DNA of 64,000 nucleotides from Bryobacterales bacterium. Lineage in GTDB: Bacteria > Acidobacteriota > Terriglobia > Bryobacterales > Bryobacteraceae. The DNA is taken from contig CAVTJS010000003.1 of the NCBI GenBank assembly GCA_963735145.1, positions 2,739,194 to 2,803,193 of the forward strand, written 5' to 3'. The position numbers were made by a program, and so were the translations under genes. Shown here one piece after another: positions 14,385-44,965 of the stretch. The stretch's first letter is position 1. Every line of letters begins with the position of its first letter. Under the pieces are notes generated by a model. The model was not told the DNA's origin, did not search any database, and saw only the letters and a program-made list of their open reading frames with translations.

Positions 14385-15867
14385 ATGAATCGAAGGGATT
14401 TTGTGCGGCTTGGATGGGCCACCGTGATCGGGGCGGGGGCAGGCAAGCTGCGGCCCGCGTTCGCTCAGTCGCTAGCGCTCCGGCAGGTTCCGGGGCCGCC
14501 ACCGCATCCGATGGTGGCGAGCTTGGAACCGAAGGCCACCGGGCGCGCGGCGGATTTCACCCTGCGGATCGCACCGATGATGGTCGAGCTGGCACCCCAG
14601 GTTGTGCTCAGCACTATCGGCTACAGCAACCAGGTCCCCGGTCCCTTGCTGCGGATGCGAGAGGGCCAGCGCGTCGCCGTAGAGGTTGTGAACGACACGG
14701 ACGTTCCTGAATACGTGCATTGGCACGGTTTGTTCGTTCCCTCGGACGTGGACGGGGCGGAGGAAGAAGGTACACCCCCGGTGCCTCCGCATGGCCGCCG
14801 GCGTTATCAATTCGTGGCCAAGCCGGCGGGTTCGCGATGGTACCACTCGCATACCGAGGCCATGCTGGATCTGCATCGCGGCGCCTACACCGGCCAGTTC
14901 GGCTTTCTCATGATCGATTCCGCGAATGACCCTGGGCTCTACGATCAAGAAGTCTTTCTGGCGCTGCGTGAATGGGAGCCTTATCTGACCACGATGGATC
15001 AGGACGAGGAGCGGCCGGATCCCAGCGATCCGATGCCCGAAAAACCCGCCACTCCAGACAAGCGTCCCAACGGGCTCGAAATCAGCGCTCCTCTTTATTC
15101 GATCAACGACAAAATGCTCGGTGCGGGGGAGCCCCTCCGCGTGCGAGCGGGTCAGCGCATCCTGATGCACCTGCTCAACGCCAGCGCTTCGCAAATTCAT
15201 CGCGTGGCGCTTTATCGGTCACAAATTTCAGGTGATCGCTCTCGACGGCAATCCCGTGCCCGCGCCTCAGCGGGTCGATGTGATTGAGATCGCCCCGGGC
15301 GAGCGCGTGGATGCGATCGTGGAGATGAATCAGCCGGGCGTTTGGATTTTAGGGGAGCTGCGCAATGTCGCGCGGCAATCCGGCATGGGCATCGTGGTGG
15401 AGTACGCCGATCAGAAGCAGCGCGCGCAATGGCATCCGCCTCCGAAGGCGCGCTGGGACTACACAATCTTTGGCACGACCGCGCCGCATTCCGCGCCGGA
15501 CGAGACCATCGACATGGTCTTTGAAAAAGTGCCTGGCGGGCCCGGCGGGATCAATCACTGGCTCATCAACGGCAAGGAATATCCGCATGAACGGGAATTC
15601 GTGTTCCGTCAGGGAAGGCGCTACCGGCTCGTGTTTCACAATCGCAGTGACGATTCTCACCCGCTGCACATCCACCGGCACCTGTTCGAGCTTGTCGAGC
15701 TCAACGGCAAACCGACTGCCGGCATCAAGAAGGATACTGTGATCGTTCCCGCATTTGGACGCGCCGCCGTGGATCTGGTCGCCGACCAACCGGGCCTCAC
15801 GCTGTTTCACTGCCATATCCAGCAGCACATGGACTTTGGTTTCAAGGCGCTGTTTCGCTACGCCTAA
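14385..15867 (+). pseudogene. Tat-exported multicopper oxidase, frameshifted
   Basis: ORFs 14385-15287 and 15232-15867 together carry the four copper-site motifs (HWHGLF, WYHSH, HPLHIHRH, HCHIQQHMDFGF) and a Tat signal (MNRRDFVRLGWA). The frame breaks at about 15210-15216. HRVALY/GHKFQVIALDG is restored by removing 1 nt. Confidence 0.8.
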
Positions 15868-16137: not shown

Positions 16138-17604
16138 ATGAAGACGATCCGGGGAAGGTTCCGAGCGGCAGTGCTCATGGGAGCTTCCGTCTCGATGCTG
16201 GGATTTGCGCCTGGGGCAAGGGCACAGTTTCCATTTCCGATCGGCAATTCGACGCCGAACGACAATCCGTGGCCTTACGCAACAACAACGGGCCGCTCGC
16301 CCGTGCTTGCGGTGGTTGGCGACATCGCCTGCCAGCCAGGCGGGGAGGCGACCGATGAGGCTTCGGGTGAAACCTGCACCACCGCCTCGTCCCCCTACAA
16401 CAGCACCTCTCTGTGGCAATCCCAGGAGGCCACTGCGAATCAGATTGAGAATATGAAGCCTGCCGCCGTCGCGCTCCTCGGAGATCTGCAATACCAGGTA
16501 GGCCGATATTCGGACTTTGAGGGATCGTTCGATTTGACGTATGGCGCTTTTAAATTTCTCCACCGGCCTGCGCCCGGCAACCACGAGTTTTATGACGAGC
16601 ATGGCGAGACCGGCGTTGGCGGCTACGGCTACTTCTCCTACTACAACGGCTTCCTGGTCGATACCACCAGTGGCGCTAGTGAGGGTATGCCTCTGATGGC
16701 TACGATCTCGGACCCGTGTCCCGTACCCAACAGCAGTTGCAAGGCGGGCAAGACCCCAGTTGCGGACCTCTCCCCCCAACCCATTCCGCGGGCGTATGGA
16801 CAGGCGGGGTATTTCGCGCCGGCGGGCGGACTCGAAACCGCGACATATTACAACGGCCCCTTGGCCGGCACCCCGGCCCCAGTCGGAGTCGGAGATGGCT
16901 GGTACTCCTACAATCTGGGCTCGTGGCACCTGATTTCGCTCAATATAGAGTGCTATACGCAGCCGGGCGGCTGTTCGAGCACGGGCACCTGGTTTGCCTC
17001 CGAGCTCCAATGGCTGAAAAGCGATCTCGCGGCGAATCAATCCGCGTGCACACTCGCCTACTGGCACCAGCCCACGTTCAGCGCCACTAACGGCATCACC
17101 GAGGAGGGCGTGACCGCTCAGGCCTTTTGGGAACTGCTCTACAAGTACGGAGCCGACCTGGTGCTGAACGGACACGACCACCTCTATGCCCGCTACCGCC
17201 CCCTGGACCCCTCCGGGAATTACGATCCAAACAAGGGCATACGGGAATTCATCGTGGGCACCGGCGGCGAGACACTCGATCCGATCTTCGTAACCTCTGT
17301 GACGGCCGCCCAGGCCGCGTCCACGGGTGCCACCGAAACAAACCAGGAGGATCCCACCGGCAACGTGAATTTCAACGCAGAGAATCTCCAGGCGTATACC
17401 GGGGACTACTGGGGTGTGATGGCCCTGACGCTTAATCCGAACGGCTACGCGTGGGATTTCGAGTCGGCACTGGCAGGTCCTACAGCTGCAATCAATGGTC
17501 CTACACTTCCTGCACCGACTGCGAATGGTGGTTATAGCGACAAGGGCGTTGGCACTTGCCACGGCCCGGTTAACCCGTTTGCCATTTTGTCTTCGCCGTT
17601 TTAG
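16138..17604 (+). CDS. secreted calcineurin-like metallophosphoesterase
   Basis: 488-aa ORF with a signal peptide and the phosphoesterase motif series VVGDIACQ, LLGDLQY, GNHEF, GHDHLYARY. Confidence 0.8.
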   Translation: MKTIRGRFRAAVLMGASVSMLGFAPGARAQFPFPIGNSTPNDNPWPYATTTGRSPVLAVVGDIACQPGGEATDEASGETCTTASSPYNSTSLWQSQEATANQIENMKPAAVALLGDLQYQVGRYSDFEGSFDLTYGAFKFLHRPAPGNHEFYDEHGETGVGGYGYFSYYNGFLVDTTSGASEGMPLMATISDPCPVPNSSCKAGKTPVADLSPQPIPRAYGQAGYFAPAGGLETATYYNGPLAGTPAPVGVGDGWYSYNLGSWHLISLNIECYTQPGGCSSTGTWFASELQWLKSDLAANQSACTLAYWHQPTFSATNGITEEGVTAQAFWELLYKYGADLVLNGHDHLYARYRPLDPSGNYDPNKGIREFIVGTGGETLDPIFVTSVTAAQAASTGATETNQEDPTGNVNFNAENLQAYTGDYWGVMALTLNPNGYAWDFESALAGPTAAINGPTLPAPTANGGYSDKGVGTCHGPVNPFAILSSPF

Positions 17605-17944: not shown

Positions 17945-18433
17945 TTGCTCGCAGGTGTGGTATTGCGCCAGCCTGACGTGACTTTCGATCAGGAAGCGAG
18001 GATCGATCTGGGCGGCGTCACGGCGCGCTTGATCTGGTTCGGCGAAGCGCATACCAAAGGCGATGAGTTGACCTTTGTTGAACCGGACCGCACGTTGATT
18101 TCGGGCGACGTGGTGCAGAACAAGACCATACCGATGATCTTCGGCGACGGTGGCACACCTTCCTCGTGGCTCGCGGTGGTGGATAAGGTGGCGGGCCTCA
18201 ACGCCGCGCACGTCCTGCCCGACCATAGTGCTCCCGGCGATGGTTCGCTGGTTGCTGCGGAGCGGAACCTGATAGCAGAAATTCGCACGCGAGCGCTCGC
18301 ACTCAAGCGGCAGGGTATATCGGCGGATGACGCTGGGAAAGAAGTCAGCGCAGGCCTCAAAATGTTACATCCCGATTGGCCCAACACTAATGCAACAGGA
18401 TTCGTCAAGAGCGTTTACGCCGATCATCAATAG
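17945..18433 (+). pseudogene. C-terminal half of an MBL-fold metallo-hydrolase (5'-truncated remnant)
   Basis: The 162-aa ORF matches only the distal part of MBL hydrolases (..WFGEAHTKGDELTFVEPDRTLISGDVV..VLPDHSAPGD..). The HxHxDH core is missing and is not encoded in any frame upstream. Confidence 0.6.
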
Positions 18434-18771
18434 AACGCTGTGATTCGACCTTAGCGGGGAGGCTTCATAGCCCCAGCCCTGTGGAAGAATCCGCCAGTGG
18501 TGCCGATGCCAGTGATCGTCCAGTGGCGGGCTGTTGAAGAAGTGAGCGCTCGAACCTAGCCCCAACGTTCCAAGTCATGATTCGTCCCCGATCCCGAGCC
18601 TGGCCCCCAACGGCGCTCCGGTAATTTGCCCGGCGCCGGATTCAACAACATCCTCGAGCGTTGCGAAGGAGGCGGAAATGGTTCGACAATAATAGAGAAG
18701 GCGTTGGAGTTCACCCTTAACCGCCCCATCGGGGAAGATGACTCCTACCAGGATGTCTCCGGCGGGCTTGT

Positions 18772-20829
18772 ATGCGATCTGAATACGCGGCAGCAGGGCT
18801 AAACTCCTCTCACCAGCTCCACTTGCTCAGCAGCGCCCAACACGCCGACAAATTGTTGGGCGATGTCGAGTCGATCCTCTCCGCTTCCAAATCAAAATCC
18901 GCCTTCAAGAAATACAAGAGTTCACTATTGCCGGCACAGGCCAAAGTCGTCGAGGACTACGTGGCTCGAATACGGACACAGTTGGAGCGTGTCCTGGAAG
19001 CCGAAGGGATTCCGCTGCCGGAACCCGCTTTCGAGTCTGTCCACACTATGCGTGTGACGCTCGCCTTTGTCAGGATCGCGTTCCAAGAGTGCACACCGAA
19101 TCGGATGCGCGGCTACGGCGAGATCCCGGAATCCGAGGTACGCATGCTCAATGGCCTCGTGGATGAGATGGTCAGCGCTGTTGAAAAGCTGGATTCGTAT
19201 CTCGCACGAGGGCTGGTGGACGACTTGGAAGCGCATCTGGAGCGGCTAGCGCGGGCGGGGGCCGATGTCGGTTTGCTGCAGATCCTTGAGCGAATTATCA
19301 ACGAGCACGGATTCGTTGAATTCCGCCCGACACTTTCTATGATCATCGATCGCCTGGAAACGAAGACTTTTGAGATTGCTCTGTTCGGCCGTGTCAGTTC
19401 CGGCAAATCCTCATTACTGAACCATGTTGTCCAGTCTGAAATTCTTCCGGTGGGCGTTAACCCGATCACTGCCGTACCGACGCGGCTAGTCTATGGCGCC
19501 ACTCCGAATGTTAGCGTGTGGTACGCGGACAAGAATCCTGAAAGATTCGATGTTTCAAAATTGCCGGAGTTCGTAAGTGAACGGCATAATCCCTCCAACT
19601 ACAAGCACGTGACACGAATCCAGCTAGAGTTGCCGTCGCCGCGGCTGAGGGATGGCATAGTGCTTGTCGACACACCGGGCCTGGGATCTTTGGCTACGTC
19701 GGGGGCTGCGGAGACGCTCGCGTACTTGCCGCGTTGCGACCTGGGCGTCGTGTTGATCGATGGCGGGTCCACGCTCACCGAAGACGATCTCGCTACCATC
19801 CGAACGTTGTACGAAGCGGGCATTCCAGCCTCTGTGCTTCTGAGCAAGAGCGACCTCCTCGCTGGGGAAGACCGGCTTCGATCATCACAGTACATCTCGG
19901 AGCAGATCTCGGCTCAGCTCGGGCTCACGGTGCCGGTTCATCCGGTGAGCATCGAACCAACACACTCCTTTCTTCTCGATGCATGGCTAACGGAAGTAAT
20001 TCTTCCGCTCTACGACAAGAACCTACAACTGATGCGGGAGTCCCTGTTCCGGAAGATTGGATCACTGCGAGGGGCAGTGGAAACCGCTTTAAAGCTCCGG
20101 CTCGATCGTACGCGGTTGTCCGACGGAGCGCCGGATCAAAGTCCAGAAGACCTCGCTGCCGTAGACAGCAGGCTCAGGATGGCCGCCGGCCGAATTGCGG
20201 AGGCTCGCGAGCTTTGCTTCCAGATTACTTACGCCGTTCGCGGCTATGGTGAACAGGCCTTGAGCAATGCGGCAAGTCGCTTAACGCAAACAGGCCTTCC
20301 CAGCACTGTCGTTCAAGAAGCGTTGGAGCAGAGCGCGGCTGAAAAGGCCGGCGAAGTATTTCGCGCTCTGAAGGAAGCTGCCAGCGAACTGGGCGGCACC
20401 TTGGAGTCTACAGCGCGGGCGCTCCATTTCGCGGAGTCAAACCAGGAAGAAGATCTCGCGGCCGCCATCCAGGAACTGCCAAAACTCGACCTCGGTGCAT
20501 TGGACATTGACGTGAAACCGGGCCTGTTCTTGAAGGTATCGAGGCGTCTCTCGATCCACAAGGTCGAAAGAGAATTGCGGCGTCAGATCGGGCAACGTGT
20601 TTCAGAGGCGTTTTCAAGTTTCGGAAGCATGTTGGACACCTGGTCACGGCGGACACTGAGCGAATTGCAGGTTCGATTCGATGCCGAAGCGGATGCCTAC
20701 CGCGCTCACATCAATCGCCTGGCTACGCGCGGGAAGGTTTCGACGGGCGAACAATCCGCTATTGCGCGCGACCTGGATCTGCTCGCGGAACCGGCCGGCA
20801 ATACGACCGCGGAGATCACAACTCGATGA
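18772..20829 (+). CDS. bacterial dynamin-like GTPase (BDLP) with a long helical N-terminal extension
   Basis: 685-aa ORF. G1 is FGRVSSGKSSLLN, G3 is VDTPGLGS and G4 is LLSKSDLL, followed by a long helical stalk. About 200 aa precede the GTPase domain. Confidence 0.8.
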   Translation: MRSEYAAAGLNSSHQLHLLSSAQHADKLLGDVESILSASKSKSAFKKYKSSLLPAQAKVVEDYVARIRTQLERVLEAEGIPLPEPAFESVHTMRVTLAFVRIAFQECTPNRMRGYGEIPESEVRMLNGLVDEMVSAVEKLDSYLARGLVDDLEAHLERLARAGADVGLLQILERIINEHGFVEFRPTLSMIIDRLETKTFEIALFGRVSSGKSSLLNHVVQSEILPVGVNPITAVPTRLVYGATPNVSVWYADKNPERFDVSKLPEFVSERHNPSNYKHVTRIQLELPSPRLRDGIVLVDTPGLGSLATSGAAETLAYLPRCDLGVVLIDGGSTLTEDDLATIRTLYEAGIPASVLLSKSDLLAGEDRLRSSQYISEQISAQLGLTVPVHPVSIEPTHSFLLDAWLTEVILPLYDKNLQLMRESLFRKIGSLRGAVETALKLRLDRTRLSDGAPDQSPEDLAAVDSRLRMAAGRIAEARELCFQITYAVRGYGEQALSNAASRLTQTGLPSTVVQEALEQSAAEKAGEVFRALKEAASELGGTLESTARALHFAESNQEEDLAAAIQELPKLDLGALDIDVKPGLFLKVSRRLSIHKVERELRRQIGQRVSEAFSSFGSMLDTWSRRTLSELQVRFDAEADAYRAHINRLATRGKVSTGEQSAIARDLDLLAEPAGNTTAEITTR

Positions 20830-20863
20830 TGCCAGATGCCGACTCGCGCGAGTACGCTTTCGC

Positions 20864-21286
20864 TTATCTGATTCGATCCGCGGAAGACGTGCCCGCCGAC
20901 TTTCCGATCCCCGAGCCGGCGCGTTTTCGAGCCCGGCCTGTTTCTGCCACGTGACGGCGCGGACTGGTTTGGACGGCGTGCATATCCGCCCCGCATTTTG
21001 TTGTTAGATGCGGATGCAATTCTTGTGTTGACTCATCCACGCTATAACGAGTCGCCTGTGCGACTGCTGCCGGACATCGCGTTTTACGAAGCTGTCCAAA
21101 GTACGTATCCTCGACCTCCTTCTCTTCGTCAACCTCCAGCATGGTTTCCGCGTAGCGGGGCAGATCCTCTTCGACGCTGATCATATGGAGGCTCGCATGG
21201 AGGCGCAACGTAAGTTCCACCGCTGTGTCAAACGCCTTCTGGGCTCCGTCCGAACCATCGTGGGCAACCAGAATCCGTTCAAACAT
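20864..21286 (-). pseudogene. universal stress protein (UspA family), probably decayed in its C-terminal half
   Basis: The N-terminus MFERILVAHDGSDGAQKAFDTAVELTLRLHASLHMISVEE is a typical Usp. After about residue 70 the sequence loses Usp character, although Usp-like strings (..GSTADRI-like SAGTSSADRI) reappear. The ATG lies 2 nt from the IS end. Confidence 0.55.
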
Positions 21287-21288
21287 TC

Positions 21289-21307
21289 TAGCAGCGTGAG
21301 GTGAAAC
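21289..21307. repeat. IS terminal inverted repeat (left)
   Basis: TAGCAGCGTGAGGTGAAAC. The reverse complement of 22752-22770 is TAGCAGCGCGTGGTGAAAC. Confidence 0.8.
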
Positions 21308-21316
21308 TGGCTGTTT

Positions 21317-22705
21317 TCACTGCGCGACGGTAATCATCTGAGCCGGGTCGGCAAGAGTCATTAAGTCGCCGAACCTTGTGACGAGTGTCGCTGGCGTAGA
21401 CCAGCCGCGGATAGAGGCGAGCACGGCCGAAAAAATGGCAGCCCGTGTACTCGCCAGGCCACGCGGCGTGCCTTTTCCGAACAGTTGTCGCATTAACAAT
21501 CCAAGATTGGCCGCGCCCGAGTGCACCACCAAGCGCTTGAGAATGTTTTCCCGGCCGCGCAAATGTAGGCGACGCATCCCGCCCCGATCATACAAGTGTT
21601 GATTCCATCGCTCCAGCTTCTCGCCGCGCTGGCGTAACAGCCGGAGGCCTCGCTCTCCACGAATGCGCCGTCGATTCGCATACACCGCTTGTTGTTCCCG
21701 CTGTTGCCCTCCCCACTGTTGCGGTCCGCGATTGGGTTCCGAGCAGTACGTGCGCAAGCCCCACTCGGTGAGTTCGTTTACCAGCGCGCGACTGTGATAA
21801 CCCTTGTCGGTGACCACTTCGCGCGGCCCGTCCGTGCTGACCTGCTTCACAACATCATCGCCGTTGGCATCCGCCACCACACTCGTGATGCGCTCGCCTG
21901 CTTCGGCTACCGTTTCGGGAATCGTTGCCGTGTCTCCAACGTCTGCCCCGTGCAGCGTTACGGCGACAATCGCCCCGGTCTCCATGTCTACCGCGTGCTC
22001 GGCCTTGTGAGCCAGATGCGTGCGTCCATCCTTCATCTTGGTGATGCGCGCATCGGGATCGTGCGGATGCGTCCAGTCATCGTTGGAACCCTTCTTGGGC
22101 CGCTTGCGATCCAACTTCGCCAACTGCTCACGCGTGGGAGTTTCGATGCCGCTTTCTTTGGCCAGCCGCACCAGAAACTCCTCGTAGCGCTCTCCGGTGT
22201 CGCGCCGCACAATCGACCGTAGCGCCGCATTGGCTTCCAGAGTCGTCGCGTCTACCCCGATCGTCGTCCCCTTCAGCAGCTTCTTTTCGGCCAACACCTG
22301 CAGCACCCACTGGAACACCGCCTGATGCGTGTCCACATCCATCAGCCGCCGGGTGCGCGAGATCGTCGAATGATCCGGCACGCTTTCGTCCAGCGCGATC
22401 CTCACGAACGATCGAATCGACAGACTATCGCTGGCCCGCCATGCGATTCCGCGCTCCGAATCGATCCCTTCAAAATAGCCCACCATCAACAGCCGGAAAT
22501 AGATTCCCGGCGACAAGCCCGGCCGGCCCACCTCACCGGCGTAGAAATCCTCGCAAATCGTTTCGACGTACTCGTCGAACTTCTTCTCATCCAGAATCTG
22601 ATTCAGCCGTTGGTAAAACGGATGGCTTGCCCCTATCGGCAGCGCCGCAGTCGGTGTCCACAACCTCTCTTGCCGAACGCGCTTCTTTCGTCGTCCCATC
22701 GCCAT
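21317..22705 (-). CDS. DDE transposase (InsH-type N-terminal domain + DDE domain)
   Basis: 462-aa ORF. The N-terminus HPFYQRLNQILDEKKFDEYVE..GRPGLSPGIYFRLLMVGYFEGIDSERGIAW is typical of IS5/IS1182-like transposases. Candidate catalytic residues are in GVDATTLEANA and TDKGYHS. Confidence 0.85.
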   Translation of the reverse strand: MAMGRRKKRVRQERLWTPTAALPIGASHPFYQRLNQILDEKKFDEYVETICEDFYAGEVGRPGLSPGIYFRLLMVGYFEGIDSERGIAWRASDSLSIRSFVRIALDESVPDHSTISRTRRLMDVDTHQAVFQWVLQVLAEKKLLKGTTIGVDATTLEANAALRSIVRRDTGERYEEFLVRLAKESGIETPTREQLAKLDRKRPKKGSNDDWTHPHDPDARITKMKDGRTHLAHKAEHAVDMETGAIVAVTLHGADVGDTATIPETVAEAGERITSVVADANGDDVVKQVSTDGPREVVTDKGYHSRALVNELTEWGLRTYCSEPNRGPQQWGGQQREQQAVYANRRRIRGERGLRLLRQRGEKLERWNQHLYDRGGMRRLHLRGRENILKRLVVHSGAANLGLLMRQLFGKGTPRGLASTRAAIFSAVLASIRGWSTPATLVTRFGDLMTLADPAQMITVAQ

Positions 22706-22751
22706 GTTTGGAAGACGATCAAACTACGTCCAAGGTCACACAGGCAACGGC

Positions 22752-22770
22752 GTTTCACCACGCGCTGCTA
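22752..22770. repeat. IS terminal inverted repeat (right)
   Basis: GTTTCACCACGCGCTGCTA, which pairs with 21289-21307 (2 mismatches). Confidence 0.8.
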
Positions 22771-23103
22771 GGCCCTTGCCGCCTTCTGAATTCGCACAAT
22801 ACTCACGTCCGACATCGCGATCAACCCCTTGTCCATCATTTCTTCCAGGATGGGTAACAGCCGTTGGATGTTTTCCTCGGTATCGACGATCTGGACCAGG
22901 ATTGGCAAGTCATGCGTGAGGATATGAGACCGGTGAATCTCCGCCGTGTCGCCGTACCCTTCGAGGCCGCGGAAGACCGTGGCTCCGGCGATCTTCAGTT
23001 CCAGGCATTTGTGAACTATAGCCTCATAGAGCGGTTTGCCCTGGTGGCGGTCATGCTCGGTGAAATGCAAGCGCAGCAGTTTAGCTGGCTGATAGTTTTG
23101 CAT
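22768..23103 (-). CDS. DUF190 (PII-like fold) protein, single domain
   Basis: 111-aa ORF with the DUF190 signature (GKPLYEAIV..AGATVFRGLEGYG..LPILVQIVDTEENI). Its stop codon TAG is formed by the CTA at the IS junction. Confidence 0.75.
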   Translation of the reverse strand: MQNYQPAKLLRLHFTEHDRHQGKPLYEAIVHKCLELKIAGATVFRGLEGYGDTAEIHRSHILTHDLPILVQIVDTEENIQRLLPILEEMMDKGLIAMSDVSIVRIQKAARA

Positions 23104-23851
23104 CGATAGCCTCCGGCTTCGTATCCGCCTGCCTTGTATCCGTTAAAGAGTGGGGGTGAATGAGGCGAACCATGTCCACCTCCGATACTACGATGAGTCC
23201 GTCCTGCAACATTTCCTCAACCGCTTCCGCAGCCAGACTCATTTTCTCTTCCGTCTCGATGACTGCGATCACCATGGGCAGGTCGCGGCTGGTGTGCAGG
23301 CGATTCTGTTTATGCGTGTGTCCTTTTACTCCATATCCCAGGATGCCGCGGTAAACGGTGGCGCCGGATATATCCAGCATGCGGAGGCGTTTGACGATCG
23401 CGTCGTAGAGCGGTTCTCCGTTCCATCGATCCGCCTCGCCCAGGAAGATCCACATCAGTTTGGCCTTTCCGGCTTTGCGCTCATGCAGCTGCTTCGGTTC
23501 CAGTCGTCGTTTTTCCTTCGTGGCGATCTTGACGACGGTCGTATCCTGAACTTCGATGAGTCCGTCTGTGACCCTGTCGTAGAGAGTTGGAAGAAGTTCG
23601 TCCACCTTCTCCGCGGTCTCGATGAATTCGATTCTGAGCGGCAAATGTTCGGACCGCGCCTCCATGGTCGGCGTGTGTATCACCTTGTGCGCTCCAAAAC
23701 CAGCCAGGGCTCGTGTTACCGTGGCGCCCGAAACGTTCTTGTGCAAAAGGAAGGTGAGGATCGATTCGTAGATCGGGGCCAAATGGAACTGCGTGTCCTC
23801 ATTGACGTAGATCGTGACCTTCTTTGCGGTTCCCTTGGAAAGCATGGACAC
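23081..23851 (-). CDS. tandem double DUF190 (PII-like) protein
   Basis: 256-aa ORF with two DUF190 repeats (..SGATVTRALAGFG..LPLRIEFIETAEKV.. and ..SGATVYRGILGYG..LPMVIAVIETEEKM..). A strong RBS (AAGGAGGAGG) precedes the ATG. It overlaps the next gene by 23 nt. Confidence 0.75.
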   Translation of the reverse strand: MSMLSKGTAKKVTIYVNEDTQFHLAPIYESILTFLLHKNVSGATVTRALAGFGAHKVIHTPTMEARSEHLPLRIEFIETAEKVDELLPTLYDRVTDGLIEVQDTTVVKIATKEKRRLEPKQLHERKAGKAKLMWIFLGEADRWNGEPLYDAIVKRLRMLDISGATVYRGILGYGVKGHTHKQNRLHTSRDLPMVIAVIETEEKMSLAAEAVEEMLQDGLIVVSEVDMVRLIHPHSLTDTRQADTKPEAIDAKLSAS

Positions 23852-23862
23852 CTCCTCCTTAT

Positions 23863-25036
23863 TTACCCCTCCGCCTGTTCGGCCGGCTTGATCTTGGTTC
23901 CCATCCTTGCAGCCACGGTCGTCTTGGACGCGGCGCCGGGCAATAAGAAATAGGCATTTGCGATCGCGGTGGGAACAACTGCGCTTGCAATCACGGTCGC
24001 TACCAGGTGCGAATACTGTGTCTGATTGATGATCTGATGATTGAGCCCGAAGAGCGCTGAGTCAAGCCGGTAGACATCATCAACGAATAATACATGCCGT
24101 CATGCCCTACATAGTTAAACTTTGGTAACCAGCATCGTTACGAATACTAATGGCGCGGCGATAAGGGCCGGAACCGATACCAACGAACCGGCTCGGATGA
24201 AATAGAACGGCGTCAGAAGCCCGAATGTCAACGTGCGCAGCCGGCGGATCAGCACGTGGTCCTTCCCCACCGTCCCGGCTAGCACCATGCCAATGATATA
24301 AGCCGGCAACACTGCCTCACTTCCGGCCCAAGCCGCCAAGCCGCCCATACCGAAAAGCGTGAACAGGATGTATTTCGTCTCCAACTCAGACACTCGGCCG
24401 CCGTAACGCTCAAAAAACGATGGTGTCAGAAACGGTAAAATCGAAAACACCACAACGCTAACCAGGACGAAGATCAACGTCCTCATAGTGAACGGCGCAA
24501 AGATCAGGCCAAGAGCGATAACGTCCCAAGATCATTGACGAAGCAGGCCGCCAGAATCCCTTTGCCGAAATCGGTCTGATTCAGGCCAAACTCCAACATT
24601 ACCGAATAGACCACGGCAACCGATGTGGTTGAGAGAGCTACGCCTGCCAGCCAACTGGGCATGATGGCCCAACCGAGCACGAGTGAGCCACGGCGGCGGC
24701 GCCCAGGAACGGCGCGAAGAAGCCAACCAGCCCGACGACGAAGGCCTCCTTCCATTTGGTCCGAAAGATTCCCGGGTCCAACTCCGCGCCGGCCAGAAAC
24801 GTCAGGATGATCGCACCGGTCCCCGCCAGAAACGTGATCCACGAAGACGTTGCCCCCAGCGCCTGCGTTCCGATCAGCGCGCCGATGATCAACTGCGCGA
24901 CCGTTCCAACCACGATTTCCGAGAGCGCGGTCGAGATTCGAAACCAAATCGAAAGCATCGTCGCCACCAAGGCCAAAACCAGCCAAAGGGCCGCTACAAG
25001 CCAGACCTGTTCCATCGGCTTGCTCTCCTCTTTCAA
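23863..25036 (-). pseudogene. cation:proton antiporter (CPA-type Na+/H+ or K+/H+ exchanger) with at least four frameshifts
   Basis: Antiporter-like TM segments are spread over three frames: 24638-25036 (..LSEIVVGTVAQLIIG..FLAGAELDP..), 24504-24680 (..WLAGVALSTTSVAVVYSVMLEFGL..), 24115-24486 (..LPAYIIGMVLAG..FYFIRAGS..) and 23863-24110 (..LMMSTGLT.. then ALFGLNHQIINQTQYSHLVATVIASAVV..). Confidence 0.7.
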
Positions 25037-25158
25037 TACTTATTGGGAAACCGTTTCGGAGGTCTGAACAGATGCCCCTACAACAGTTACCCGTCGTAGG
25101 AGTCATTGTCCGTGTGGCACGGAATTAAGCGAACTCCACCGCTCGGATAAAGCATACA

Positions 25159-26859
25159 TTATCGAGGGCCGGTCCGCACGTTTCCTTCCTGTTCAATCGC
25201 TTTTCGAGCGGAATCCATCCGCTCCAGATGATTCTTGATCGCGGGTACGCGGTCGCTGCTGGCGGTTTCGATCAGTCCTTCCACCGTTGCGATCAGCTCG
25301 TCGAGGCGGCGCTCGGATTCTTTTCCAACACTCAGCAATGCGGCATTGATGCTCTCCTCCCATTGCGACGTGAGGCGGGAGATGTTCGCGTAGACAATCT
25401 CAGGAATCCTTCGGGTAAAGTGGCGTCTTACTAGAGATTTGATCAATACGACCGGCGCGACCGGCGACAGGAGCTCCCAATTACGATCGAATATCCGGCC
25501 CGCCCGAATGTCGGGTTCCTGCGGCTCTTGAACCTCGATTTCCACTTCGGTGGTGCGGAGCGGGATGCCAAATGCTCGCAGCGTACTCTCCGACAGCCGG
25601 TCACGAAATTCCTGGAGGTAACGAAGAACCTGCCTTCTGGCCTTTTCAAGCGGCTCGATGACCCGTGCGTGCTCCGCCAGCGATATTCGGGCTAATTCGG
25701 CCGATAACGTTCCTTCCAGCCAGTCTTCGAAGGAGCTAAGGAGAACAGCCAGGCTCTTGGTCCAAGCGGGAAACCTTGAGGCGAAATCCGTACGTAAACA
25801 GCGTTCGAGCTCCAGTTGGTGCGGCTCGAAGACGGCCGCTGCAATGGCGCGCGTGCCGCCCACGGCGTGGCGCACAATAAGGCGCAGCTCGCTCTTGACG
25901 TCGGCCATTACTTGCTTCTCGCCGATCACCTGCCTTTTCACTGCTTCACGCTCAGAATCTAGAAGCTCTGCTGACTTCAGATGCAACGCCACGTAATCGG
26001 AGCATTCTCTCAGCAACGTATCGATCTTGCGTGAGAGGATTGCGCTGCGGCGTCCCCCGAACTCGGTCAGAGTGCGGTCTATAACCTTCTGCTCCAATTG
26101 CTCGCGCAGTTCTTCGTATCCAGGACGAACAGAGTACGGAAGAATTTCCGGTGAACTCCCAAAGCTCTTGGTCAACCGGGTGCGGATGAAATCGAGGACT
26201 TCAGAGCGCTCTTCGGTGCGAAGCAGATCCACTTTAGTCAGCAGTACGGACACGTTCGGCGTGTACCGATACAGGTTCTTCAACAGCTCGATGTCTTGCT
26301 GGGAGAGCGGAGGATCTACGCTAACCGCAACCAAGGCCAAGCCCACGTTGGGCAGCCAGCTCAGAGACGCTTCGGTGTTGTGCGCAAGCACGCTCTCAAG
26401 GCCCGGCGTATCCACGAATATCAAGCCCGGAAACCGTGCCAGGCTAGGGAGTTCAACCCGGATGGTTGCCACTCGTTTGTAATTCTCTGCATTCTCACGC
26501 TCCGAGACGTAACTCGCGATTTCATTCAGGGGAATTTCGTTTACGCGTCCTTCCAGGAATCGGACTTCGGCTCTCTCGGCGGGGCCAAATCGAATTTCAG
26601 TGACTACCGTTGTTACAGGGACCACTCCGACGGGTAGCAGCGGGCGACCGAGGAAGTGATTCAGGAAGCTGCTCTTGCCGGCTTTGAATCGTCCGACGAT
26701 TGCGATTGTGATCTCAGCCTGCGTCAGAGCGGACTGGCACGAGGTAAGGAGGGCATTAATCGGAGAGAGCCCATAGCGCTCGGCGATTTCTGAGACCAGA
26801 TCGAGACCTTGGCTAAGCTGAGGATCGACGGAAGTGGCCTTTGAATTGGTCGAGAACAA
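25159..26859 (-). CDS. bacterial dynamin-like GTPase (BDLP)
   Basis: 566-aa ORF with a TTG start in the track. G1 is VGRFKAGKSSFLNHF, G3 is VDTPGLES and G4 is LLTKVDLL, followed by a helical stalk. It is a paralogue of 18772-20829. Confidence 0.8.
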   Translation of the reverse strand: MFSTNSKATSVDPQLSQGLDLVSEIAERYGLSPINALLTSCQSALTQAEITIAIVGRFKAGKSSFLNHFLGRPLLPVGVVPVTTVVTEIRFGPAERAEVRFLEGRVNEIPLNEIASYVSERENAENYKRVATIRVELPSLARFPGLIFVDTPGLESVLAHNTEASLSWLPNVGLALVAVSVDPPLSQQDIELLKNLYRYTPNVSVLLTKVDLLRTEERSEVLDFIRTRLTKSFGSSPEILPYSVRPGYEELREQLEQKVIDRTLTEFGGRRSAILSRKIDTLLRECSDYVALHLKSAELLDSEREAVKRQVIGEKQVMADVKSELRLIVRHAVGGTRAIAAAVFEPHQLELERCLRTDFASRFPAWTKSLAVLLSSFEDWLEGTLSAELARISLAEHARVIEPLEKARRQVLRYLQEFRDRLSESTLRAFGIPLRTTEVEIEVQEPQEPDIRAGRIFDRNWELLSPVAPVVLIKSLVRRHFTRRIPEIVYANISRLTSQWEESINAALLSVGKESERRLDELIATVEGLIETASSDRVPAIKNHLERMDSARKAIEQEGNVRTGPR

Positions 26860-26967
26860 GCCGCGCCTCTACGTTCGTAGGAGCCATCGTTCCCGAGAAT
26901 CACGCGGGACGGTTAATGGTAGAGCCCCATCACCCCAGGTTCATTACACCCGCATTGTAGCAATCAG

Positions 26968-27666
26968 CTAGGGTTCGCCCAGGCCGCCGTGGCGGAGGAC
27001 ATGCGCCAGACCAGCTTTGACCGCGGCCGGTATCGGCAGCGCATCGATCTTGCGAACGGTTTGCGCGAACGGATAATCGAAGGACCGAAGCTCGATCGTT
27101 CCATCGTCCCAAACGGCGTAGCAGGCTTGCGGCCTCCCGGTCTTCGGCTGGCCCAAGCTGCCAGGATTGACCACTCGACGGTCTCCGAAATGGCGATCAA
27201 ACACCAGGTGTGTATGTCCAACCAGCAGAATGTCTGCCTGCGCGAACTCCAACTCGCTTTCCCAGCGCGGTGAGTCGGGTGGACAGTATGTGAACAAGGG
27301 CTCTGAAGGAACCGCGTGGCACATGGATACCTTCATTCCGCGAAGCTCGCGGTCGGCCCGGAGAGGAAGGTCGCGCAGGAATTGCTTTTGTGGTTCTGAG
27401 AGAACTGAGTTTGTGTACTCCTGCATTGCCTGCGCCATCTCCCGGAACAGCGGTGAGCAGCGAGGATCTTCCTTGAACCCGATGGCATGATCGTGATTTC
27501 CTCGGATCACGATAGACGCGTTTGCTTTGACGAAATCGATGACTTCGGCCGGATTGGGGCCGTAGTTCACCAAGTCACCGAGTACCCAAACTTCGTCGAA
27601 ATTTTCCGGCAGCCCCGCGAGTGCCTCCAGATTTCCGTGAATGTCGGAGATAATGCCGATTTTCAT
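26968..27666 (-). CDS. YfcE/MJ0936-type metallophosphoesterase
   Basis: 232-aa ORF with the motifs ISDIHGN, VLGDLVNYG, RGNHD and VGHTH. Confidence 0.85.
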   Translation of the reverse strand: MKIGIISDIHGNLEALAGLPENFDEVWVLGDLVNYGPNPAEVIDFVKANASIVIRGNHDHAIGFKEDPRCSPLFREMAQAMQEYTNSVLSEPQKQFLRDLPLRADRELRGMKVSMCHAVPSEPLFTYCPPDSPRWESELEFAQADILLVGHTHLVFDRHFGDRRVVNPGSLGQPKTGRPQACYAVWDDGTIELRSFDYPFAQTVRKIDALPIPAAVKAGLAHVLRHGGLGEP

Positions 27667-27804
27667 TTAAGCGGGGAAATCGCGAAGCCGTCGCAAAGGT
27701 TGAGGGCCGGAGCCAACACCAATGGCTAACGATAGCATTTCGAATATGGTGGCCACATAGTCGCTGCTCGCCTTGGTGTTTCGTTATAGGAGAAGGCGCG
27801 AGCA

Positions 27805-27933
27805 TCAGAACATCATTCTTCCGCCGACGCAAAGGAGCACGACCAGCGCCATGCCGTAAGAAATGTTGAGCGACGTGTGCCGCTCGTTCGGAGGAGCCGC
27901 ATCTCGCCGACGGTTCGGTAGGTTTGGAAACAT
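27805..27933 (-). CDS. possible 42-aa small membrane protein
   Basis: An ATG lies 11 nt after the stop of the 607-aa gene. Translation: MFPNLPNRRRDAAPPNERHTSLNISYGMALVVLLCVGGRMMF, with one hydrophobic helix. There is no clear RBS, so this is speculative. Confidence 0.2.
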   Translation of the reverse strand: MFPNLPNRRRDAAPPNERHTSLNISYGMALVVLLCVGGRMMF

Positions 27934-27944
27934 TGTCACAGGCT

Positions 27945-29768
27945 TTAACGCCGTTTCTCGTGATCGGCCACGTTCTCCGGTATTATCAGATCGGTGCACA
28001 TGAGCCGCAACACCTGAGCCGCGTCCAGCGGCAGCCCGATAATCCTGGCATCGCGGCCCGCACCAAGCACCTCCGTGAGCAGGTCCTTCTTGAGGGCAAT
28101 CCATCCGCCTGGCGTTTCGTAACTGACAAGGAAATGCCCTTCCCGCCGCGCCGCCAGCAGTTGCGCCCGGTCATAGGGCTCAGCTTTGTGCGCCGCCACA
28201 ATATGCCTGTCCGAAGAGCCGAAGTACTGGGCTGGCAGTTCCGGAATCGTCGACGCCTTCGAATCAGTCTCAGGGTCGTCCCCGGACACGATATACAGGC
28301 GCCCGGTTCTTGAACCGTCGCATGCCTCGGCATTTGAATCGCGCCGCCTGAGCTCGCTCTCGATGCGGTCATAAACGTCTTCGGCGAACTGTTGCGGGTA
28401 GTCGTACAACCGTTGTACTTCGGGGTCGATGTGGGGCAATTTCCGCCAGCCGTTCACCCAGGCGAGCTTTGCCGCGCTGGTGTCCCCATCGTTCCAAATA
28501 TCATCCAGAAAGACATCTTCCAGGCTGAATCGCGTTTCGGCATCGTGCTGCAACGCTTTGAGCGCCATGTGCTCGATGAGATGGGATGGCAACCCGAATA
28601 TAACTCCGTAGGGAGAACAGCCGCCGTCAACCGGCCTGAAACGTGGGAAATCGTCACGCAATGACTTGATCAATCGGTCAATTAGTGCACGGTACTCTTT
28701 TAGCAGCTGCACATGTCGCTGTCCCAGGGGCGAATAAACGACATGGCCGTCGCGATCCGCAGCGATGAAAACGTGCTCGATCATGCTGTAAGCGCTCAAC
28801 AGGTCGACGCGATTCAGAAACAGCTCGGGATCGGCAGATATGCCCTGACAGATGGCTCCTGCCATGTCGAGCCGCATTCGCTTGTCGCCGCTCCGCAGCG
28901 CGCAGTCATAGGCTTTGAGCAACCCCACGAGGCCCTGAACCAGCAGTGCGAAATCGAGCGCATTGGAGGTGCGCGTGCGAAGGACGACGCTATGCTCGTT
29001 CATAGACATGCCTTCCTTCGTGCGGTGGTAACGAATCTGTGAGGTCAGATGCCCGCCCAGCATTCGAACATGGGCTCTCTGGATTTCGAGCACGTCCGCT
29101 TCCGGAAGCGTCTCTGTGACCTGCTGGGCGACCTCGAAATAGGGCGCCAACTCATCGGTAATGAGGCTCTGCGCCAATGGAATCAGCCAGCGCGCGTCGC
29201 GCACGATCACGGGTTGATCGGCTGGTGAGCTGCTCCATAGTTCATCGAGCACGCCTTGAATTTCCGCCAGCCGCCCGCCGGCCTTTTCCTGTGCAAAGCT
29301 GCTTGGGTCCTCATCCCAGAGGCGCATGCTCAGAAATTGGAGACACCGGAGTACATACAAGTTGAACAGCGTGTGCGCGTAGTGCATGCGTCCGTTGCGA
29401 CCCGCCCAGCGAGTCTGCTGCCAGCAATAAAAGCCGCGAATCATCATCTCCGCCGGATGGATCAGGTCGTTATGCAGACCCTGAACCTGACGAGGTCTGA
29501 ATCCGCCGGCCCAATGCGCTTCTTCCAGTTGGCCTCTGAGACGAGTTTGGCTGGCCGTGACCGCGGTGCGTGCAAAGAAGCACTCCTCGAAATCGCGGGA
29601 CAAAAGAGACTGGTCCTGTAGGTACCCCGTCGGCTTTCGCTGGGCGTTCAGAACGGCCTCTATGCTCTCGACGATATCTACGCGATGCGTCAGAAACAGT
29701 CGCAGCAGCTCAACGTTTGCCTGAAACGGCACCTGACCAAACGGCTTCCCCGTCACGATTCGCCCCAC
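27945..29768 (-). CDS. 607-aa hypothetical protein, no recognisable domain
   Basis: A long uninterrupted ORF (GTG start in the track) with protein-like composition, unlike the Arg/Pro-rich shadow ORFs on the opposite strand. I recognise no motif. Confidence 0.7.
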   Translation of the reverse strand: MGRIVTGKPFGQVPFQANVELLRLFLTHRVDIVESIEAVLNAQRKPTGYLQDQSLLSRDFEECFFARTAVTASQTRLRGQLEEAHWAGGFRPRQVQGLHNDLIHPAEMMIRGFYCWQQTRWAGRNGRMHYAHTLFNLYVLRCLQFLSMRLWDEDPSSFAQEKAGGRLAEIQGVLDELWSSSPADQPVIVRDARWLIPLAQSLITDELAPYFEVAQQVTETLPEADVLEIQRAHVRMLGGHLTSQIRYHRTKEGMSMNEHSVVLRTRTSNALDFALLVQGLVGLLKAYDCALRSGDKRMRLDMAGAICQGISADPELFLNRVDLLSAYSMIEHVFIAADRDGHVVYSPLGQRHVQLLKEYRALIDRLIKSLRDDFPRFRPVDGGCSPYGVIFGLPSHLIEHMALKALQHDAETRFSLEDVFLDDIWNDGDTSAAKLAWVNGWRKLPHIDPEVQRLYDYPQQFAEDVYDRIESELRRRDSNAEACDGSRTGRLYIVSGDDPETDSKASTIPELPAQYFGSSDRHIVAAHKAEPYDRAQLLAARREGHFLVSYETPGGWIALKKDLLTEVLGAGRDARIIGLPLDAAQVLRLMCTDLIIPENVADHEKRR

Positions 29769-44399: not shown

Positions 44400-44965
44400 G
44401 ATTAGGACAGACAGGCGTCGGCTGGTGAGTCTATAATCAGACCGCCGACTTTCTTTATCGATCGTCGATAGTAGATCCGGCTCTGAGTCCGGGGCGCGGT
44501 CGCCTGCTCGATGTTCTCCTTGGTCGGTTGCCAGCGGTTTTCCACTCTTGTTCGACACTTCGACGGTAGTACGCAACCGCCGACTCCCCACCAACGTGCA
44601 TGTTGGACTTCTGGCTCAAGGCCTTCTCCAACCGGCCCGCCGTAATCGGGGCGATGGGCGTCGATGGGGTCTCCCGGTTCCCGCGCGCGGAGTTTCCGTG
44701 CATGCCAGGGGTCTTAGACTGCGCTGAGTCCGCCGGATGCTCGCGATTACGCATCCGCCAGTGTTGCCTTCCGCGATGCTGAACGACGTCGACACTCCGA
44801 TTGCGATTATTTCGCAGCTCAATACCCTGCCTGCACTTCCCCCTGTCAACGCTTCGATGGCAGCCTTACGGCTGTCCACGCATGACTCGGGGCCAGGATG
44901 GCTCGCTACGCCTTTCCTGCATGACTCTTTCATTCACAACTCCACGCCGGTTTGTACAGGCGCAC
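44400..44965 (-). mobile_element. 5' fragment of a bacterial group II intron (domain I region plus the first ~50 codons of the intron ORF), 3'-truncated
   Basis: The minus strand starts with GTGCGCC at 44965. The spurious ORF 44616-44933 (..KGVASHPGPESCVDSRKAAIEALTGGSAGRVLS..AEGNTGG..) and the following ..MHVGGESAVA.. / ..KENIEQATAPRTQSRI.. strings match sequences I recall being conserved at the 5' end of group II introns and the N-terminus of their reverse transcriptases. No RT body or domains V-VI follow. Confidence 0.6.

Follow-up and report, generated by a model that had tools for sequence, protein, structure and literature searches.

Fluoride riboswitch aptamers in front of two dynamin-like GTPase genes in a candidate fluoride-stress island of an acidobacterium

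Introduction

Bacterial dynamins bind membranes and remodel or repair them, as is the case for DynA, IniA and Cj-DLP1/2, and IniA is induced under stress by drugs that act on the cell envelope. To our knowledge, the use that bacteria make of these proteins is largely open, and a physiological role is described for only a few of them, namely DynA, IniA, LeoA and Cj-DLP1/2. The described pairs, such as Cj-DLP1/2 (5OWV), the fused DynA of Bacillus, IniA/IniC of Mycobacterium and the Nostoc protein (2J68), have in common a Dynamin_N GTPase domain flanked by helical bundles and the retention of two diverged paralogues together in the genome. Here we describe a pair of genes for bacterial dynamin-like proteins (BDLPs), BDLP1 and BDLP2, that resembles these systems in both respects, together with the fluoride riboswitch aptamers that stand in front of them. 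The pair lies in a stretch of 64,000 nucleotides, hereafter the window, from a Bryobacterales bacterium (Acidobacteriota, Bryobacteraceae; assembly GCA_963735145.1, contig CAVTJS010000003.1, forward-strand positions 2,739,194 to 2,803,193). The G+C content of the window is 56-63%, and the named homologues of its proteins come from metagenome-assembled genomes (MAGs) of Bryobacteraceae and Bryobacterales (Acidobacteriota). On balance, we favor reading the region as an island of fluoride-stress genes, from a Bryobacteraceae-like acidobacterium, in which the dynamin pair is induced by fluoride, probably for membrane maintenance.

Many members of the fluoride super-regulon have no role that we know of. 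Enolase, pyrophosphatase, universal stress protein (USP), cation transporter and mutS-like genes are established companions of the riboswitch (PMC2864571, PMC5533749, PMC7266159). Resistance is conferred by an operon with a fluoride riboswitch that comprises genes for USP, enolase and pyrophosphatase (PMC5533749), the accepted logic being that enzymes inhibited by fluoride are highly expressed (PMC5533749; PMC11777429, Table 2). The aptamers described here share the helices P1 and P2, the pseudoknot and the invariant nucleotides with that of the ppaC-uspA-eno-gpmA-crcB operon of Enterobacter cloacae FRM (PMC5533749; Weinberg 2010, PMC2864571). With fluoride-riboswitch regulons in general, the window and its relatives share the placement of aptamers in 5' leaders and the gene classes of USP, enolase, pyrophosphatase, cation/proton antiporter, major facilitator superfamily (MFS) transporter and MutS-like protein. 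They differ from these regulons in that the genes right behind the aptamers encode dynamin-like GTPases, and in that several aptamers are present per island, one per dynamin.

Compared with the known dynamin pairs, the inducer proposed here is an inorganic anion that RNA would sense, the N-terminal region of BDLP1 is long, helical and conserved, the partner genes encode a HEAT-like protein, DUF190 proteins and a Na+/H+ exchanger, and the two genes of the window are 4.3 kb apart and convergent. Induction by stress, as for IniA, is what we propose for the window dynamins. The new element is the coupling of the riboswitch to dynamins, the components themselves being ordinary. A full-text search, outside which the gene lists of Baker et al. 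2012 fall, found no publication linking fluoride riboswitches to dynamins, and a search of the same kind on GTPase returned unrelated co-mentions only.

Two sets of loci underlie the comparisons. Around homologues of a 607-aa protein that is also encoded in the window, 54 species-level loci were fetched with ±8 kb of flanking DNA (L001-L054). The dynamin-anchored sample consists of 26 loci (L055-L080), 19 of them metagenome loci reached via BDLP2 and seven reached via BDLP1. The closest intact sister locus, L074, was used as the reference for the dynamin island of the window.

Fluoride riboswitch aptamers of the island

The initial annotation of the window, generated by a model from the sequence alone, overlooked three fluoride riboswitch aptamers (Rfam RF01734), which lie on the sense strand in the 5' leaders of genes. 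When the whole window was compared with all 4,227 Rfam families, aptamer 1 (18691-18754, + strand) scored 37.2 bits against a gathering threshold of 34 (E 1.1e-6), and its 3' end is 17 nt before the ATG of BDLP1 at 18772. In a permissive scan, aptamer 2 (26871-26943, - strand) reached 32.6 bits with RF01734 (E 7e-6), 1.4 bits under gathering, and its 3' end is 11 nt before the start of BDLP2. Aptamer 3 (25090-25152, - strand), with 18.9 bits (E 0.22) in the same kind of scan, begins 7 nt past the BDLP2 stop codon and ends about 53-74 nt before the start of a Na+/H+ exchanger gene. A clade-specific covariance model, R1, scores aptamers 1, 2 and 3 at 64.4, 59 and 58.3 bits, respectively. The whole 64-kb window holds exactly three aptamer matches, each immediately ahead of an island gene, namely one for BDLP1, one for BDLP2 and one for the unit of the Na+/H+ exchanger, the DUF190 genes and USP.

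The weak matches of aptamers 2 and 3 are supported because aptamers recur at the same positions in related loci, with Rfam as well as with the clade model. An aptamer on the same strand is found 12-120 nt upstream of 11 of 12 BDLP1 orthologues and of 12 of 16 BDLP2 orthologues. Scores above the Rfam gathering threshold are reached before the orthologues of both dynamins in L059, L062, L063 and L065, before the BDLP2 orthologues of L064 and L066, and before the BDLP1 orthologue of L074; the BDLP2-type aptamers of L059 and L062-L066 score 34.4-48.5 bits with RF01734. Ahead of the exchanger, an aptamer is present in the window and in L055, L056, L057, L064, L069, L074, L077, L078 and L080, that of L064 being above gathering (40 bits, RF01734). 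Enolase genes are preceded by an aptamer in L076 and L077. In the negative control, the 54 loci fetched with the 607-aa homologues (842 kb), no aptamer match was better than E 0.44.

In the 25 copies compared, pairing reaches 99.1% for P1 plus the pseudoknot, and three pairs are compensatory (GC/AU, CG/UA and UA/CG), a result reached by none of 500 shuffles. Fifteen columns are invariant over these copies, and the invariant positions are kept in all three aptamers of the window. Between BDLP1-type and BDLP2-type aptamers the pseudoknot has a U-A versus C-G swap, and P2 of aptamer 3 has a compensatory U-A in place of the C-G of L074. For P1 and P2 in 37 copies, pairing is 94.3% and five of eight pairs change on both sides, in an alignment that was fitted to the model. 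Judged from their sequences and from the covariation of helices and pseudoknot, the aptamers appear to be ordinary members of RF01734.

An expression platform can be proposed for BDLP2. In its leader, GCUCCUAC, the strand on the 3' side of the aptamer, can pair with GUAGAGGC, where the ribosome-binding site is located; the minimum-energy fold predicted for the leader without ligand buries this site along with the TTG start. The helix that would sequester the ribosome-binding site occurs in two sequence versions, GCUCCUAC with GUAGAGGC in the window and L055, and AUAGCUC with GAGCUAUG in L059-L065, where GAGCUAUG includes the AUG start. As cytoplasmic fluoride rises, for which acid soil would pose a strong risk since HF diffuses into the cell, fluoride would bind the aptamers. 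At BDLP2, the bound aptamer would hold its 3' strand within P2 and the pseudoknot, and the ribosome-binding site and start codon would thereby be freed, giving a translational ON switch. The position of each dynamin behind a fluoride aptamer suggests that fluoride switches on bacterial dynamins, and we regard fluoride-dependent regulation of the island dynamins as highly probable on these sequence features.

The two dynamin-like GTPases

Both open reading frames (ORFs) that the initial annotation had proposed as dynamin-like GTPases are present, BDLP1 at 18772-20829 (+, 685 aa) and BDLP2 at 25159-26859 (-, 566 aa), and their assignment is borne out by Pfam Dynamin_N (PF00350), which matches with E 4e-23 and 6e-23, respectively, and with 82-83 bits. 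The G1, G3 and G4 motifs read GRVSSGKS, DTPG and SKSD in BDLP1 and GRFKAGKS, DTPG and TKVD in BDLP2, in agreement with that annotation, and G1-G4 of a dynamin-type GTPase domain could be located in both. The two GTPase domains share 31% identity over 242 aa (BLASTP E 1e-28). Against L074, BDLP1 is 80% and BDLP2 79% identical, end to end.

A helical N-extension of BDLP1, likewise noted before, is seen in its AlphaFold2 model as about 190-200 residues ahead of the GTPase domain, and this helical N-terminal region is conserved. The nearest solved sequences of BDLP1 are IniA, Cj-DLP1/2, NosDLP and mitofusin. Its model, which is of moderate confidence only (pLDDT 67), is matched by Foldseek best to IniA (6j72, E 4e-12, 578 columns) and NosDLP (2j69, E 5e-11, 677 columns), followed by Cj-DLP and mitofusin; BDLP1 is accordingly modelled with a near-full-length dynamin-like fold that includes the helical bundles. 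For BDLP2, sequence comparison gives Cj-DLP (5owv_C, E 5e-16), IniA and NosDLP as the nearest solved sequences. No segment of transmembrane strength was found in BDLP1 or BDLP2. Residues 463-477 of BDLP2 form a hydrophobic patch, LLSPVAPVVLIKSLV, which is only a hint of a membrane-binding tip or paddle. BDLP1 and BDLP2 are ordinary members of the BDLP/mitofusin class.

The suggestion that the two dynamins are linked partners has held up, as orthologues of both occur in one island in L059, L062, L063, L065, L074, L075 and L077, and are adjacent and divergent in L059, L062, L063, L065 and L075. BDLP2 orthologues were found in 15 loci with identities of 46-89%, the highest being that of L055 (89%). 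In L078 and L080, there is no BDLP2 within 10 kb of BDLP1.

The downstream unit of BDLP2 and its decay

The 4.3 kb between the dynamins had been described as insertion sequence (IS) and pseudogene DNA of a decayed operon. This is right for an IS1182-type element, a frameshifted exchanger and a truncated USP gene, that is, for the tail of the locus, but not for two intact DUF190 genes. From comparison with related loci, where the genes downstream of BDLP2 orthologues on the same strand encode a Na+/H+ exchanger, a tandem-DUF190 protein, a single DUF190 protein and USP, the interval appears to be the conserved downstream part of the BDLP2 unit.

The exchanger pseudogene (23866-25036, -) is recognized by Pfam Na_H_Exchanger on its first fragment, and the intact 406-aa product of L074 matches it in three frames by tblastn. 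The DNA alignment with L074 has two deletions of 1 nt and five of 8-18 nt. Sequencing error was rejected as the source of the frameshifts: with a length of 8-18 nt in five out of seven indels, they are taken as real decay. The tandem-DUF190 gene (23081-23851, -, 256 aa) has two PF02641 matches (E 7e-58) and is 85% identical over its full length to a 249-aa protein of L074. In L057, L059, L062-L066, L070, L071, L074 and L075, the place of this gene is downstream of BDLP2 or of the exchanger, and in L077, L078 and L080 it is found elsewhere in the island. The single DUF190 (PII-like) gene (22768-23103, -, 111 aa; PF02641 E 7e-32) is 93% identical to residues 1-110 of the 114 in L074 and is intact save for its last ~4 codons, which are replaced by the end of the IS. 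The DUF190 genes would be the intact remainder of the downstream unit, and where relatives keep the exchanger intact, it may contribute to ion or pH homeostasis, as is assumed from its family.

The IS (IS1182/IS5-type; 21288-22771, 1,484 bp) is bounded by 20-nt terminal inverted repeats at 21288-21307 and 22752-22771 that are 90% complementary. Its transposase ORF (21317-22705, -) carries DUF772 and DDE_Tnp_1 and scores 155 bits with NF033551 (IS1182), for which the cut-off is 270. The element is inserted exactly at the junction of DUF190 and USP, two genes that overlap directly in L074. The USP gene (21089-21286, -) retains amino acids 1-66 of 140, which are 94% identical to the same residues of the L074 protein; Pfam Usp covers residues 1-80 only, and the ORF at 20864-21286 runs from USP into antisense DNA of the remnant of a HEAT-like gene. 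This frameshifted remnant (20826-21090, +) was delimited by tblastn with the 288-aa HEAT-like product of L074, which matches the window at residues 1-89 only. At ~21089/21090 lies the junction of a deletion by which the HEAT-like gene (codon ~89) is fused to USP (codon ~66), with ~1.5 kb missing relative to L074, an AAA_16 gene included. Full-length HEAT-like genes of ~290 aa follow BDLP1 in L074-L080, with a HEAT_2 match in L076 and also in L059. The tail of the island is therefore decayed in this genome through the exchanger pseudogene, the IS insertion and the deletion of HEAT-like, AAA_16 and half-USP sequence, while both dynamins, both DUF190 genes and the three aptamers are intact.

A further likeness is offered by the fluorometabolite cluster of Streptomyces cattleya, in which flH presumably encodes a Na+/H+ antiporter-like protein. 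In the Streptomyces cluster, flJ encodes a DUF190 protein (PMC9173684). An antiporter-family gene and DUF190 thus stand in a fluorine-related locus there as well, but that cluster is biosynthetic and has no reported riboswitch or dynamin.

Metallophosphoesterase and the 607-aa protein

Upstream of BDLP2 on the same strand lies a YfcE-type metallophosphoesterase gene (26968-27666, -, 232 aa), correctly named by the initial annotation (TIGR00040, 62.0 bits against a cut-off of 56.25; Metallophos_2, PF12850, E 3.5e-22). The gap of 108 nt between it and BDLP2 was given at its right length, but it is not a spacer, as aptamer 2 fills it. This gap being a riboswitch, BDLP2 would be under its own control. 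A translational switch can operate within a polycistronic transcript, and co-transcription of BDLP2 with the phosphoesterase is therefore possible.

As a member of a module with the dynamins, the phosphoesterase finds partial support. Orthologues, 53-79% identical, occur in four of the seven BDLP1-anchored islands, but their position varies and they are absent from the 19 BDLP2-anchored metagenome loci, L055 included. In L074 (79%) the phosphoesterase stop is 3 nt before the BDLP2 ATG (17179-17183), an arrangement of translational coupling in which the riboswitch between the two genes is missing, and no aptamer was detected upstream of the phosphoesterase in this locus. In L075 (53%) the gene overlaps the start of BDLP1 within an MFS-phosphoesterase-BDLP1 operon, in L076 (55%) it belongs to a separate operon behind a weak aptamer, and in L077 it is divergent from BDLP1. 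The phosphoesterase is treated here as a probable accessory member of the island because it recurs in some islands at varying places and is absent from the BDLP2-anchored loci. It may be a fluoride-sensitive dinuclear-metal enzyme that is made in excess, like enolase and pyrophosphatase.

Farther upstream is a conserved hypothetical gene for the 607-aa protein (27945-29768, -). The statement that it has no recognizable domain agrees with the absence of any match in Pfam, NCBIfam, PADLOC and PHROGs, where seven of its distant homologues gave nothing either, but the label of orphan does not fit a protein with >2,100 homologues. These are 75-91% identical across Bryobacteraceae species and 55-58% identical in three MAG loci of Gammaproteobacteria, and an exhaustive HMMER search yielded 352 cluster representatives with identities as low as about 30%. 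Among the distant homologues, P0200 is a fusion of 1,683 aa. The AlphaFold2 model (pLDDT 85, pTM 0.89) is mostly helical, and Foldseek found no match to it in the PDB at E < 1e-3. The C-terminal ~120 residues weakly resemble guanylate kinase by fold and profile. A profile search against PDB sequences returned guanylate kinase only (E 0.043, residues 469-562), and the protein has GRLYIVSGDDPETDSKAS at the P-loop position, i.e., it is without the kinase P-loop.

The genomic neighborhood of the 607-aa gene does not appear to be conserved in the 54 loci around its homologues. None of them contains a dynamin or phosphoesterase orthologue, and none encodes the 443-aa ORF found upstream. When the flanking ORFs were clustered, one was partly recurrent (12 of 54 loci, without Pfam match) and the other neighbors were unrelated. 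A phosphoesterase relative occurs in a single case, in L011, at 32% identity and about 4.5 kb from the 607-aa gene. The 607-aa protein is encoded in none of the 26 dynamin-anchored loci, and L074 carries a cytochrome c gene in its place. By this comparison, the 607-aa gene is judged to be an unrelated neighbor outside the island.

Between the 607-aa gene and the phosphoesterase, a membrane peptide of 42 aa had been suggested (27805-27930, -); it is conserved in no related locus and was rejected as a gene. The distance between the two ORFs is 278 nt, and the range of 108-138 nt once given for the intergenic gaps does not hold for it. A hairpin at 27885-27868, 60 nt past the stop of the 607-aa ORF, is only suggestive of a terminator. 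Scans for promoters and terminators gave counts no different from those of shuffled sequence.

Related islands

The related islands are bigger than that of the window, and enolase, pyrophosphatase, MFS transporters and pairs of MutS_V ATPases are also present in them. A third dynamin of 777-834 aa is found in L059 and L076, where BDLP1 is followed by a HEAT-repeat protein and then by this larger dynamin (L059 2980-8367, -; L076 9001-14582, +). L076 also encodes a 643-aa dynamin within an aptamer-headed enolase-phosphodiesterase-dynamin-MFS operon, with a second, weaker aptamer immediately ahead of it. In L078 (10001-17500), L080 (9788-17356) and L079 (10001-15026), the riboswitch-headed BDLP1 operon runs on into an MFS transporter and a HEAT-like protein. 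Two ATPases with MutS_V domains (about 540 and 517 aa) come next in L078 and L080, and in L079 the contig end cuts a further, partial dynamin. The long-known 'mutS' association of the crcB motif could lie in the same operon as the dynamin.

Several of these islands are adjoined by other kinds of genes, namely an integrase and an XhoI-type restriction-modification pair in L078 (1209-4755), a Cas12f/TnpB-like ORF in L059 (13752-15593) and an IS transposase in L055 (393-1226). Fluoride islands may have moved horizontally.

Proposed role and alternative explanations

At low external pH fluoride builds up in the cytoplasm, and in diverse bacteria it leads to lysis (PMC12700350). Because dynamins remodel or repair membranes and fluoride causes lysis, we propose that the pair serves membrane maintenance, a role that we put forward tentatively by analogy with the family and from the genomic context. 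The two dynamins would repair or remodel the cytoplasmic membrane under fluoride or acid stress, probably working as a hetero-pair in the manner of other such pairs in bacteria. More specifically, they could be dedicated effectors induced by fluoride: RNA would sense the ion directly and switch on the pair, whose task would be to protect or remodel the cytoplasmic membrane of acid-soil cells flooded by HF/F- or Al-F complexes. In relatives, the proposed effector pair would be accompanied by a HEAT-like adaptor, by a third dynamin or by ATPases of the MutS-like kind; we think this possible, with the odds somewhat against it.

Several points weigh against a fluoride-stress island with a membrane-maintaining dynamin pair. 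Aptamers 2 and 3 score below the Rfam gathering threshold in the window, and R1 was trained on sequences that it scores highly. The coupling of aptamer and dynamin is frequent, not obligate, as the BDLP2 orthologues of L056, L061, L074 and L077 and the BDLP1 orthologue of L075 have no aptamer. For the BDLP1 leader, single-sequence folds are no better than those of shuffles and the leader alignment is uninformative as to a platform. No match to CrcB was found in the window by tblastn, which with an approximate E. coli CrcB query is a weak test, CLC-F not being part of the search. The related loci, from acid-soil metagenomes and MAGs, all look like one lineage. The island is decaying here, so that the system may be only partly functional in this genome, and the function of the dynamins is read from family and context only.

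The main rival to the membrane-maintenance reading is the over-production of a fluoride-sensitive enzyme. According to this explanation, the dynamins are themselves sensitive to fluoride, as GTPases trapped by Mg- or Al-fluoride transition-state analogues, and are over-produced, or are tolerant isoforms, or act as a sink, to maintain a housekeeping membrane function and not as a dedicated repair response. Dynamin-family GTPase domains do dimerize with GDP-AlF4-, and a dinuclear-metal phosphoesterase would fit as well. Enolase and pyrophosphatase genes stand behind aptamers in the same islands, and high expression of fluoride-inhibited enzymes is the accepted resistance logic (PMC5533749; PMC11777429, Table 2). 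Bacterial dynamins, however, come without evidence of being essential or limiting, many genomes have none, and up to three paralogues per island (L059, L076) resemble a dedicated machine more than a spare part, so that we rate this explanation as unlikely. It could also be argued that the island of this genome is a decaying relic whose aptamers and dynamins are no longer selected and do nothing, as the seven deletions in the exchanger, the truncation of USP and the HEAT-like gene by deletion, the inserted IS and another frameshifted gene nearby (14385-15867) would suggest. Such a relic would be hard to reconcile with two untruncated dynamin ORFs, whose products share 79-80% identity with those of L074 over their whole length, with intact DUF190 genes, with the retention of all invariant aptamer positions in three copies, and with the compensatory pair by which aptamer 3 differs from its L074 orthologue, and we hold it to be improbable.

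Two further explanations concern defense or a different set of partners. The initial annotation had joined the 607-aa protein, the phosphoesterase and BDLP2 in one unit with BDLP1 as a distant partner, acting in membrane remodelling or anti-phage defense. The three genes do share one strand in the window, and for the phosphoesterase there is translational coupling to BDLP2 in L074 and an overlap with BDLP1 in L075. Yet the 607-aa gene never occurs with a dynamin or phosphoesterase orthologue in the 54 loci, which is the lack of co-occurrence that this annotation had itself named as contradicting its proposal. The gene is also absent from L074 and from L055, whose BDLP2 is the most similar one, a riboswitch stands between the phosphoesterase and BDLP2 in the window, and PADLOC finds no system; this unit is therefore very improbable. 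An Eleos-type defense system (LeoA/LeoBC, formerly 'Dynamins', in the PADLOC model) in a fluoride context that is coincidental is a reading to which we give hardly any chance. Like Eleos, the window has dynamin-like GTPases encoded near each other, some islands have integrase, restriction-modification or TnpB-like genes nearby, and PADLOC gives weak local matches to LeoA and LeoBC (E 1e-6 to 1e-3, 16-26 bits). The anti-phage suggestion finds no support in PADLOC, these local matches covering <=90 residues of models ~560-600 long and essentially the P-loop region. Eleos was rejected as an assignment, as neither dynamin matches LeoA or LeoBC at full length (BDLP1 25.9 and 24.9 bits over <=90 residues, BDLP2 16 bits). 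For the five proteins compared with PADLOC, the short Leo matches and a weak PDC-S10 match of the phosphoesterase were all that was returned. The window, moreover, has no operon of the leoA-leoBC type, the neighbors of the dynamins are fluoride-regulon genes and not defense genes, and each dynamin has its own fluoride aptamer with covariation.

If the reading of a fluoride-induced dynamin pair is true, it would provide the first defined chemical inducer and a physiological role for a BDLP clade, and it would add a new arm to fluoride resistance beside export and enzyme over-production. The fluoride super-regulon would gain a class of membrane-remodelling GTPases and possibly metallophosphoesterase, HEAT-like and DUF190 proteins. 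A conserved RNA sensor whose ligand is known precedes two dynamin paralogues here and as many as three in related genomes. Among acid-soil Acidobacteriota, the expanded fluoride islands may be rich in new resistance functions, and they could be of relevance for the engineering of fluoride-tolerant degraders of organofluorine compounds (PMC11777429).

Other features of the window

Upstream of aptamer 1, the ORF at 16138-17604 (+) is of the type of a secreted calcineurin-like phosphoesterase (GNHEF and GHDH motifs, by eye), and a short ORF near this aptamer, at 17945-18433 (+), resembles a truncated protein of the metallo-beta-lactamase fold. Two overlapping ORFs in different frames, 14385-15287 (+) and 15232-15867 (+), make up a split multicopper-oxidase-like gene (HWHG and HCHIQQH motifs, by eye), apparently a second frameshifted gene near the island. 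A mobile intron is present farther along the window, at 44709-44928 (-), where RF02005 of Rfam (Group II intron domain 1-4) scores 187.7 bits, its gathering threshold being 49; L058 terminates in a fragment of the same family.

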